Below, piece by piece: positions 17,392 to 18,972 of a DNA stretch of 64,000 nucleotides (its first letter is position 1; every line of letters starts with the position of its first letter). The notes beneath the pieces were generated by a model. That model was given only the letters and a program-made list of their open reading frames with translations, was not told the origin of the DNA and ran no database searches. A program made the position numbers and the translations under genes. Source of the stretch: Candidatus Colwellbacteria bacterium. Lineage in GTDB: Bacteria > Patescibacteriota > Minisyncoccia > UBA6257 > Colwellbacteraceae. The stretch spans positions 73,031-137,030 of the forward strand of contig JAQTUL010000001.1 of assembly GCA_028710275.1 (NCBI GenBank), in the 5' to 3' direction.

Positions 17392-18972
17392 TTACACTTC
17401 AATGAAAATAGTTTCGGGATAGAAGATAGCATCGATATCTATTACATCTATAGTATTTTGTCCATTATCTTCGTCGTAGAATAATCTGATAACACTTATA
17501 ATATCATTCGGTACATGTTGTATACAACCTTTGACTGTTGATATCAATCTATTTATTCGATGAGATGTTATACCTGCTTTTATTTTCTTTAGATTGTGAT
17601 CTGTATACCCATCAGGATTAAAACGAACAAACATTACTTTTAATCCTCCAAATCCCTGATGAATATTAATCATTCTAATCTTTTCACAATCTTCATTATA
17701 ACTTGAATGTTGAAACTCATCACACTCTACAATTATAACATGAGTTCCACAGTCAATAAGAAAATCAGGTCTATATCTATGACAACCATCGTCTGGTATC
17801 TTATCATGAATAAATTTTATATCTGCGGTCTCAAGAGCTTTTTTGATAACCAGCTCCTTTTCGTGACGTATCTGTTTTATGTCTATTTTACCGCATATGT
17901 TACACATTTTAGTATCGGATTTTATGAACATTGTTTCTAAACATATCGAACACTTCTGCTGTTCGAGATTAATATCGGTTTCATGTTTGTGGTCGTCACA
18001 TCTTTCAGGATAAGAATCGTCTCGTGATGTAAAGAATGGTCGATTACTACAATTTTCGAACTCACATTTAGGTTTATTTTTGACATACATATTCGGAGTT
18101 CTATGTTTAGCACAGTGAGTTGTTTTCTCATAGAGTAATCCATAAGACGTTCGAGTTTTACAATCGGGATATACGCAACATCTTTGTTTTACATCAACAT
18201 GCGATTCGTGTTTATGAGCTTTACAATAAAGAGCTTTCTTGGTACCGCTTACGCCATAAACAGGCACCTTATCACATTCTAGACATTTATCATATTCAAC
18301 GTTTACATGATCATCATGTTTATGTTCCACACAATAAAGTCTTTTCTTGGTTCCCTTCACTCCGTAAAGAGGTAACTTTACACAACCTTTGGATAGACAT
18401 TTTTTATGAACAACATCAACATTACCATCCTGTTTATGCTGAGAACAATAGATAGGTTTTCTAGTTCCTATTTCACCGTATGATGGACGTTTTTTACATC
18501 CCACAGAAATACAGAGACCACTTTTTACATTGACATAATCAGGAGGTTTGTGCGATTTACAATAGATAGCGTTCTTAGTTCCCTTTTCACCATATGTTGG
18601 TTCAATGAGACAATCTTTGGCTTTACATCTTTTATTTTTTACATTAACACATTCATCGGTTTTATGATCAGCGCAGTATATTGCTTTTGTTGTCCCTGAT
18701 ATTCCAAATATTGGAATTTTATCACATTCTCTACATGTTCTGTGTATAACATCTACATATGATGAAAGTTTATGTAACGAACATGAAATAGGAAAAGTGG
18801 TACCTTCCAATCCATATGAAGGCTGTTTATTACACCCATCATGTACACATATTCTTCTAGTTACATCAATATGATTGGGTTTCTTATGTGTATTACAATA
18901 ATTTGGAATTTGATCGGTAGATTTTCCGTATCTACTTGGTATAATACATCCTTCAAATATACACAGTGACAT
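17392..18972 (-). CDS. Zn-ribbon repeat ('2-cysteine adaptor'-like) protein with a C-terminal PD-(D/E)xK (DUF559-like) nuclease domain; paralog of 37607..39232
   Basis: About 10 repeats of 'C..C.K.P.YG..GT.....C..HK....V.V'. C-terminal 'RPDFLIDCGTHVIIVECDEFQH' nuclease motif. Confidence 0.65.
   Translation of the reverse strand: MSLCIFEGCIIPSRYGKSTDQIPNYCNTHKKPNHIDVTRRICVHDGCNKQPSYGLEGTTFPISCSLHKLSSYVDVIHRTCRECDKIPIFGISGTTKAIYCADHKTDECVNVKNKRCKAKDCLIEPTYGEKGTKNAIYCKSHKPPDYVNVKSGLCISVGCKKRPSYGEIGTRKPIYCSQHKQDGNVDVVHKKCLSKGCVKLPLYGVKGTKKRLYCVEHKHDDHVNVEYDKCLECDKVPVYGVSGTKKALYCKAHKHESHVDVKQRCCVYPDCKTRTSYGLLYEKTTHCAKHRTPNMYVKNKPKCEFENCSNRPFFTSRDDSYPERCDDHKHETDINLEQQKCSICLETMFIKSDTKMCNICGKIDIKQIRHEKELVIKKALETADIKFIHDKIPDDGCHRYRPDFLIDCGTHVIIVECDEFQHSSYNEDCEKIRMINIHQGFGGLKVMFVRFNPDGYTDHNLKKIKAGITSHRINRLISTVKGCIQHVPNDIISVIRLFYDEDNGQNTIDVIDIDAIFYPETIFIEV

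Follow-up and report, generated by a model that had tools for sequence, protein, structure and literature searches.

The 64,000-nucleotide stretch analyzed here (the window) belongs to a 152,625-bp contig of a metagenome-assembled genome (MAG) labelled Candidatus Colwellbacteria bacterium, and it encodes two similar proteins in which an array of small cysteine- and histidine-containing repeats precedes a nuclease-like C-terminal region. What kind of protein is this fusion, in which organisms does it occur, and what might the repeats contribute to it? A reading made from the DNA letters alone, hereafter the sequence-only reading, had described the two open reading frames (ORFs) as a paralogous family of zinc-ribbon "adaptor" repeats joined to a DUF559/Vsr-like PD-(D/E)xK nuclease, and both ORFs were present exactly where it had placed them, on the minus strand. 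We identified the repeats as the EsV-1-7 motif and the C-terminal region as a zinc ribbon followed by a nuclease domain of Vsr type. Joined in this way, these parts make up the usual architecture of a very large protein family of giant viruses, and the fusion is common rather than unique. The two genes and their parts were as follows.

17392..18972, minus strand: copy 1 gene, an ORF of 526 residues matching NCBI protein MDD4930604.1 exactly; EsV-1-7 repeat array, zinc ribbon and Vsr/DUF559-like nuclease
17953..18963, minus strand: copy 1 array, nine EsV-1-7 Cys2-Cys-His units (residues 4–340), from a regular-expression unit map and PF19114
17893..17952, minus strand: copy 1 zinc ribbon, CxxC-X12-CxxC (C341, C344, C357, C360), two beta strands in the structural model
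17473..17865, minus strand: copy 1 nuclease core (residues 370–500), Vsr/DUF559-like
37607..39232, minus strand: copy 2 gene, 541 residues, architecture as in copy 1, matching MDD4930618.1 exactly
38168..39190, minus strand: copy 2 array, nine EsV-1-7 units (residues 15–355), from the regular-expression unit map and PF19114
38393..39190, minus strand: copy 2 units 1–7, homogenised tandem units of 114 nt, from Tandem Repeats Finder and an identity matrix
38108..38167, minus strand: copy 2 zinc ribbon (C356, C359, C372, C375), placed by alignment
37688..38080, minus strand: copy 2 nuclease core (residues 385–515), placed by alignment to copy 1 and the family

The two proteins aligned end to end with 49% identity (E = 0). 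Both genes were free-standing between other ORFs. No third family member was found in a six-frame scan of the window, nor a further one in the 8 kb upstream of it.

The sequence-only reading had counted 8–10 repeats with Cys and His residues; such repeats were present, and their number was exactly nine in each protein. Pfam PF19114 (EsV_1_7_cys) matched nine stretches in copy 1 (E = 4.9e-89, 292.3 bits) and nine in copy 2 (E = 2.8e-107, 350.7 bits), against a gathering threshold of 25 bits. The label "adaptor" therefore had to be replaced by this described motif, and a '2-cysteine adaptor' domain was rejected because a Pfam scan at E ≤ 1 returned no adaptor family and the units were those of PF19114. 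In a pattern scan, the exact form C-X4-C-X16-C-X2-H-X12 was found in seven of the nine units of copy 1 and eight of the nine of copy 2; units 3 and 7 of copy 1 had a C-X2-C variant, unit 8 of both copies had a 15-residue spacer, and the unit period in both arrays was 36–38 residues. The YG..G pattern attributed to both copies was general, whereas GKPGSK, also attributed to both, was confined to units 1–7 of copy 2. A Pfam scan of the N-terminal region gave EsV_1_7_cys alone, with no NUMOD or helix-turn-helix (HTH) motif. Both arrays were basic, with an isoelectric point (pI) of 8.95 and a net charge of +20 in copy 1 and a pI of 8.80 and a net charge of +16 in copy 2; among 102 family members the median pI of the array was 9.08, and the C-terminal nuclease part was acidic. 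The two units adjoining the zinc ribbon were conserved subtypes, common to distant family members such as P0001.

The brown-algal literature regards EsV-1-7 as what may be a new kind of zinc finger, derived from viruses, whose biochemistry is not established. In brown algae the expansion of the motif has produced hundreds of genes; EsV-1-7 genes of Ectocarpus encode no other Pfam domain (10.64898/2026.04.27.720984), and IMM (IMMEDIATE UPRIGHT), the sole genetically studied EsV-1-7 protein, is a developmental regulator without an enzyme domain. In a Tc1/Mariner transposase of Ectocarpus, EsV-1-7 is fused at the N-terminus, the usual place of the transposase DNA-binding domain (PMC12477816). A brown-algal (Pylaiella) protein was among the closest matches to the repeats alone, within the 12 proteins listed as matches.

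In both proteins the ninth repeat was followed by the zinc ribbon and then by about 150 residues with nuclease motifs in the order RPDF ... E-x-D-E-x-Q-H ... E-x-x-R-M ... R-x-N-P-D. The C-terminal strings quoted in the sequence-only reading were found as RPDFLIDCGTHVIIVECDEFQHSSY in copy 1 and RPDFLIDCETHYIVIEVDENQHSSY in copy 2. The putative active site consisted of E373, D403, E416, D418, E419, H422, and E430 plus R450-x-N452-P453-D454 in copy 1, and of E388, D418, E431, D433, E434, H437, and E445 plus R465-x-N467-P468-D469 in copy 2. When 149 representatives of different 50%-identity clusters were aligned, D403, D418, E419, H422, R450, N452, P453, and D454 (copy 1 numbering) were invariant in 149/149; E416 was kept in 148, and the four ribbon cysteines in 148–149.

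An AlphaFold2 model of the C-terminal domain, computed from an alignment of 52 sequences, had a mean predicted local distance difference test score (pLDDT) of 88.8 and showed the two strands of the ribbon followed by an alpha-beta-beta-beta-alpha-beta core. The closest structural match of the model was Vsr; after the best matches came RAP domains, Bax1, Can2, many type II restriction enzymes, and Hjc resolvases. A profile-to-sequence hhalign comparison with Escherichia coli Vsr, covering the first helix to the PD motif, paired E373 with E25 and RPD403 with RPD51 (E = 6.4e-5, probability 64%), and a comparison with E. coli YcjD (DUF559) paired VIIVECDEFQHS with RVVVELDGGQHD (probability 8%, single sequence). 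The spacing of E416-x-D418 ... H422 appears to parallel F62/H64/H69 of Vsr, a likeness of motif spacing rather than of superposed structures, and may likewise parallel the extra acidic residue of the EDxHD family (PMC3239194). The core called DUF559/Vsr-like PD-(D/E)xK in the sequence-only reading was thus upheld in its Vsr-type fold and motifs, with the exception of the classical lysine: in place of D ... (D/E)-x-K the domain had E416-C/V-D418 with no conserved Lys, giving an Asp/Glu/Asp/His set with E-x-D. That reading had held that absence of the D/E/K triad would speak against a nuclease. The triad was absent, yet it was the wrong measure, a putative residue set of Vsr type being present; such a departure from the classical motif is described for the Vsr type (PMC3239194).

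The C-terminal domain, taken both as a single sequence and as a 35-sequence profile, had no significant match among Pfam, NCBIfam, PHROGs, PADLOC, and PDB sequences. The Pfam models of Vsr and DUF559 matched neither protein nor any of 52 family members; the weak matches were a PHROG "endonuclease" (E = 0.078), Hjc in two of 52 members, and DUF2726 in one of 52.

To what extent is this arrangement shared? In an exhaustive HMMER search with a profile of the C-terminal domain against 1.84 billion cluster representatives (50% identity), there were 6484 matches at E ≤ 1e-3, of which 4159 reached E ≤ 1e-10 and 699 reached E ≤ 1e-30. Among the best 150 matches the domain mostly lay near the C-terminus behind 200–600 residues with EsV-1-7-type units, and PF19114 was found in all ten long members that the regular expression had under-counted. 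At least 506 loci were present in IMG/VR, many of them on contigs of giant-virus MAGs (GVMAGs). In a set of 82 loci (79 from IMG/VR, two Logan contigs, and the window) we found 84 domain-bearing genes; the domain stood at the C-terminal end in every one, and N-terminal EsV-1-7 repeats, up to 17 of them, were present in nearly all. A tandem gene pair occurred in one of the 82 loci, on a contig of GVMAG-M-3300000574-23 (L028; family members at 5728..7401 and 8888..10582), and a third member was located on another contig (L049) of the same MAG.

A Foldseek search of BFVD gave homologues in cultured and metagenomic giant viruses (E = 5e-17 to 5e-12, 27–38% identity), of which the Brazilian cedratvirus IHUMI protein A0A2R8FFX4, named "Endonuclease," has 520 residues and 34% identity (E = 4.8e-17). 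The same name is carried by a Faunusvirus homologue and several Pithovirus LCPAC proteins; A0A3G4ZWE6 (Faunusvirus), A0A481Z7X3 (Pithovirus LCPAC304), and A0A481YSM1 (Marseillevirus LCMAC102) were among the homologues. A Marseillevirus LCMAC201 homologue is named DUF559 domain-containing, one homologue carries the JGI name very-short-patch-repair endonuclease, and the UniProt names of more distant giant-virus matches to the nuclease model include "C2H2-type domain-containing protein." A tblastn search of 50,697 phage records gave no match. Among 185,579 species genomes of prokaryotes there were seven loci (L083–L089), all in MAGs of unrelated phyla (Nitrosopumilaceae, Caldilineaceae, Planctomycetota, Bacteroidetes twice, Gammaproteobacteria, and Burkholderiaceae), each with an ORF that combines EsV-1-7-type units and the nuclease motifs; these are probably giant-virus contigs mis-binned into prokaryotic genomes, and the family is essentially absent outside giant viruses.

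The source of the window fitted this distribution. Its gene content was of Nucleocytoviricota type. Inteins were present in the RNA polymerase gene Rpb1, which was in pieces, and in a D5/AEP_C962R primase-helicase gene; a poly(A) polymerase regulatory subunit was joined to a cap methyltransferase, and there were also Tub, NUDIX, and NADAR genes, an AP endonuclease, and an endonuclease of HNH-NUMOD4 type. The GC content was 0.33–0.43. On the basis of these genes, we assign the contig to a giant virus (Nucleocytoviricota) whose DNA was mis-binned into a bacterial MAG. The Candidatus Colwellbacteria record is therefore a curation error, and the gene occurs in seven other nominally prokaryotic MAGs.

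The sequence-only reading had suggested that the exact fusion might not be described. This held for the searchable literature, where no paper describing an EsV-1-7 and nuclease fusion was found, and no relevant paper for Vsr with giant virus or for DUF559 with Nucleocytoviricota; it did not hold for databases, which contain thousands of members, some named "Endonuclease." The protein joins EsV-1-7 repeats to a Vsr/DUF559-like nuclease; each part is known, and no description of their arrangement was found in print. There is also a gap in the domain databases, since about 6500 clusters of the C-terminal domain are without a Pfam model.

Two contigs from one Logan run (ERR12387309) allowed the genes to be compared with those of a related virus. 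One contig (L081) was collinear with 9678..21628 of the window at 79–85% nucleotide identity, and its copy 1 orthologue occupied the corresponding place, likewise had nine units, and was 84% identical in amino acids, among neighbouring genes of 75–89% identity. For this orthologous pair, the ratio of nonsynonymous to synonymous substitution rates (dN/dS; Nei-Gojobori method, dS about 0.8) was 0.12 overall, 0.15 in the repeat array, and 0.07 in the C-terminal domain, indicating that copy 1 is functional and under purifying selection. The closest relative of copy 2 was P0009 on the second contig (L082), whose identity to copy 2 was 78% over the C-terminal domain and 61% over the whole protein; the neighbours of this gene had no counterpart beside copy 2, so that the orthologue stands in a different neighbourhood. 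Between the two orthologous pairs the C-terminal domains were 55–58% identical, compared with at most 45% to any other family representative. The paralogy claimed in the sequence-only reading was thus confirmed, each copy having its own orthologue in the related virus: copies 1 and 2 are true paralogs, and it follows from these identities that the duplication is lineage-specific and took place before the two viruses separated. Since both paralogs seem to have persisted from before the divergence of the two sampled viruses, it is likely that the genes are domesticated, at least in part, and are not transient parasites.

The comparison with L081 also gave three observations on the surroundings of copy 1. 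A 1.2-kb segment, 16192..17391, which abuts the copy 1 stop codon and contains a C2H2-like zinc-finger ORF (16542..17390, plus strand), is missing in L081; the segment is variable between strains and possibly mobile. The NADAR-domain ORF at 11796..16151 (minus strand) has 1451 residues in the window versus 983 in L081, and several internal indels separate the two. Next to copy 1 on its upstream side is an 81-residue ORF (19018..19263, minus strand) whose N-terminal tail is SR/RS-rich and whose C-terminal part has a CxxC..CxxC motif, and L081 has a 79-residue gene in that place, a match by position alone.

Near-identity of the copy 2 repeats at the DNA level had been noticed in the sequence-only reading and was borne out: Tandem Repeats Finder reported 38403..39157 as 6.6 copies of a 114-nt period with 88% matches, and pairwise DNA identity was 75–96% among units 1–7 of copy 2, compared with 25–62% among the units of copy 1. 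A recent block duplication is suggested by the identity of units 2 and 6 (94%) and of units 3 and 7 (96%), whereas units 8 and 9 were unrelated to units 1–7 at the DNA level. All of units 1–7 resembled one unit of the orthologue on L082, that at residue 183 (60–65% nucleotide identity), and the orthologue's own units were mostly 31–46% identical to one another; units 8 and 9 matched those of the orthologue one to one (59% and 63%). Because units 1–7 resemble a single unit of the orthologue, one unit type has spread over seven positions in the window lineage. This pattern indicates lineage-specific homogenisation or amplification of a single unit, in agreement with the recent expansion or concerted evolution proposed from the sequence alone. 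The total number of units was stable at about nine, the orthologue having eight full units and a partial first one. Differences among units 1–7 were concentrated in codons 1–12, which comprise the first Cys knuckle and the following loop (proportions of nonsynonymous and synonymous differences, pN = 0.31 and pS = 0.56), and codons 13–38 were far less variable (pN = 0.03, pS = 0.19). In an unrelated IMG/VR group, five full-length proteins were identical save for one exact 38-residue unit (442 residues on L014 and L020 versus 480 on L015, L017, and L019), which reflects either a repeat-number polymorphism or the assembly collapse of identical units.

What might such a protein do? We think it reasonably probable that copies 1 and 2 are modular zinc-dependent endonucleases of a giant virus, in which a basic zinc-repeat array is joined to a Vsr-type nuclease with a homing-like or conflict role. 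The array of nine small zinc modules, which makes up the N-terminal two thirds of the protein, would bind nucleic acid, most probably double-stranded DNA, and as a targeting module it would set the site of enzyme action. DNA as the ligand is pointed to indirectly by the Tc1/Mariner fusion and by the C2H2 names of distant relatives. In the nuclease domain, by analogy with Vsr and I-Bth0305I, Asp403 of the RPD motif, Glu416, and Asp418 would hold Mg2+, and His422 in E-x-DE-x-Q-H would activate the attacking water, so that a DNA strand is cut or nicked. A homing or defence-type function had been suggested in the sequence-only reading. On our proposal the enzyme would serve as a free-standing nuclease, homing-endonuclease-like or used in conflict, with specific cleavage sites in the DNA of a rival or target. 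We lean to this role because the closest two-part analogue is I-Bth0305I, because the family is very large and variable in copy number, and because the genome is rich in homing elements, which in the window comprise a pair of group I introns and a pair of inteins together with one ORF of HNH-NUMOD4 type and one that is GIY-YIG-like.

Several points weigh against this proposal. Neither gene lies within an intron or intein, and the synteny of copy 1 in the related virus together with its strong purifying selection argues against a purely selfish homing element. The seven near-identical units of copy 2 are hard to reconcile with a reading of one base by one unit, unless the target is itself a repeat or specificity resides in the variable residues of the knuckle. 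The likeness to Vsr and DUF559 lies at the level of fold and motif, with no significant Pfam, NCBIfam, or PDB sequence match, and the hhalign probabilities for Vsr and YcjD given above are low. Finally, biochemical data on any family member were not found in the searchable literature.

A first alternative is a nuclease of offence or exclusion, one that degrades host, virophage, or co-infecting viral DNA without promoting its own spread, its array binding DNA broadly or recognising a feature absent from its own viral genome. We regard this explanation, including the broad or self-avoiding binding, as rather unlikely, although the present evidence fits it and the homing-like reading alike: stable retention of both paralogs under purifying selection, the large family with lineage-specific expansions, and the homogenised repeats of copy 2, which are compatible with low-specificity or repeat-directed binding, all agree with it. 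Beside neither copy was a self-protection partner gene such as a DNA methyltransferase seen, and neither protein matched a PADLOC-DB defence model (E ≤ 0.1). Three further explanations were considered. RAP domains occur in organellar proteins, where they bind RNA or act as endoribonucleases; if the Vsr-like domain were RAP-like and the repeats bound RNA, the protein would be an RNA-directed enzyme or RNA-binding protein in transcript processing or decay; this we consider quite unlikely. Still less likely is a repair nickase resembling Vsr itself, which would recognise mismatched, damaged, or modified viral bases with the array as a DNA clamp or scanner. The top structural match to Vsr and the AP endonuclease and other DNA-metabolism genes of the window accord with repair, but many copies per lineage and a repeat number ranging from 0 to 17 are unusual for a repair enzyme, and no cytosine methyltransferase was found among the approximately 20 larger window ORFs that were scanned. 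The developmental role of IMM, which acts without an enzyme domain, would suit a catalytically dead regulator, a zinc-finger-like transcription or chromatin factor, a role proposed for IMM, that uses its nuclease-like domain for DNA binding or dimerisation. Invariance of the expected catalytic acidic, His, and Arg residues across the 149 divergent representatives and the low dN/dS of the C-terminal domain make this highly improbable.

The closest known systems compare with the window proteins as follows. E. coli Vsr (PDB 1cw0/1vsr) shares the fold at about 10% sequence identity and without a Pfam Vsr match of the window proteins; unlike Vsr, these have in addition a zinc ribbon N-terminal to the domain, an array of nine zinc repeats, and an R-x-NPD motif that is invariant, and whereas Vsr is a single-copy repair gene beside dcm, the family is multicopy and viral. 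I-Bth0305I of the EDxHD family (PDB 3r3p; PMC3239194) has NUMOD/HTH motifs and lies inside a group I intron, whereas the window genes have EsV-1-7 zinc repeats, are free-standing, and show no significant sequence similarity to it. Proteins of DUF559 (PF04480; E. coli YcjD and Neisseria gonorrhoeae NGO0050, PDB 3hrl) have about 100–120 residues and are stand-alone, bacterial, and without zinc modules. With PF19114 proteins such as EsV-1-7 of the Ectocarpus virus and brown-algal IMM, the window arrays have the motif C-X4-C-X16-C-X2-H-X12 in common; the brown-algal members are discussed as developmental regulators, whereas the window arrays are fused to a nuclease. The giant-virus entries of UniProt and BFVD given above are homologous in the C-terminal domain and have lengths compatible with a repeat array; their annotation is at the level of the name, and no published characterisation of them was found. 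The TcMar-2_Ec32 transposase shares the design of tandem zinc modules N-terminal to a DNA-cleaving domain. Engineered zinc-finger nucleases, which join a C2H2 array to FokI, follow the same design principle; unlike them, the window proteins are natural, with another zinc module, another catalytic fold, and putative reading of DNA by the units.

The standard partner of EsV-1-7 in giant viruses is thus a Vsr-type nuclease, and in Ectocarpus it has a transposase as a partner. These partners lead to the hypothesis that the motif is a nucleic-acid targeting module, and the chief value of the family may be this lead on EsV-1-7 function. In its widest form, in which EsV-1-7 is an unrecognised modular class of DNA-reading zinc domain that serves as the targeting arm of viral zinc-repeat nucleases and the brown-algal family is the domesticated arm, the idea is doubtful. 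If it were true, specificity would be expected in the variable residues within and just after the first Cys knuckle, the units would provide programmable DNA targeting with a new scaffold, IMM would count among DNA-binding factors, and giant viruses would have used EsV-1-7 arms thousands of times in free-standing homing or conflict nucleases.

The remaining elements of the window were mapped as well. Rpb1 (29855..36394, minus strand) was split into ORFs at 34562..36394 and 29855..32833, and two group I introns interrupted it (Rfam, 32781..33081 and 34210..34516, each 93.2 bits, with nearly identical cores); there were no other Rfam group I introns in the window. A GIY-YIG-like ORF (33116..33994) lay between these introns, and the downstream part of Rpb1 contained an intein with a LAGLIDADG domain. 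The other intein was in the D5-like primase-helicase (AEP_C962R, PriCT_2, and D5_N; 52017..56492, minus strand), and a free-standing ORF for a homing-type endonuclease with HNH_3 and NUMOD4 was located at 526..1560 (plus strand).

The C2H2-like ORF at 16542..17390 formed a second paralogous pair with another at 45432..46325 (minus strand; 29% identity, E = 9e-22). The two were considered as divergent members of the nuclease family and rejected, the hhalign probability being < 1%. A coding tandem repeat at 28800..29623 (11.4 copies of a 72-nt unit, 88% matches) was part of an ORF at 28560..29705, which also matched the end of L082. A further tandem repeat, at 22020..23425, consisted of 45/90-nt units within a DUF4082 ORF of 1226 residues.

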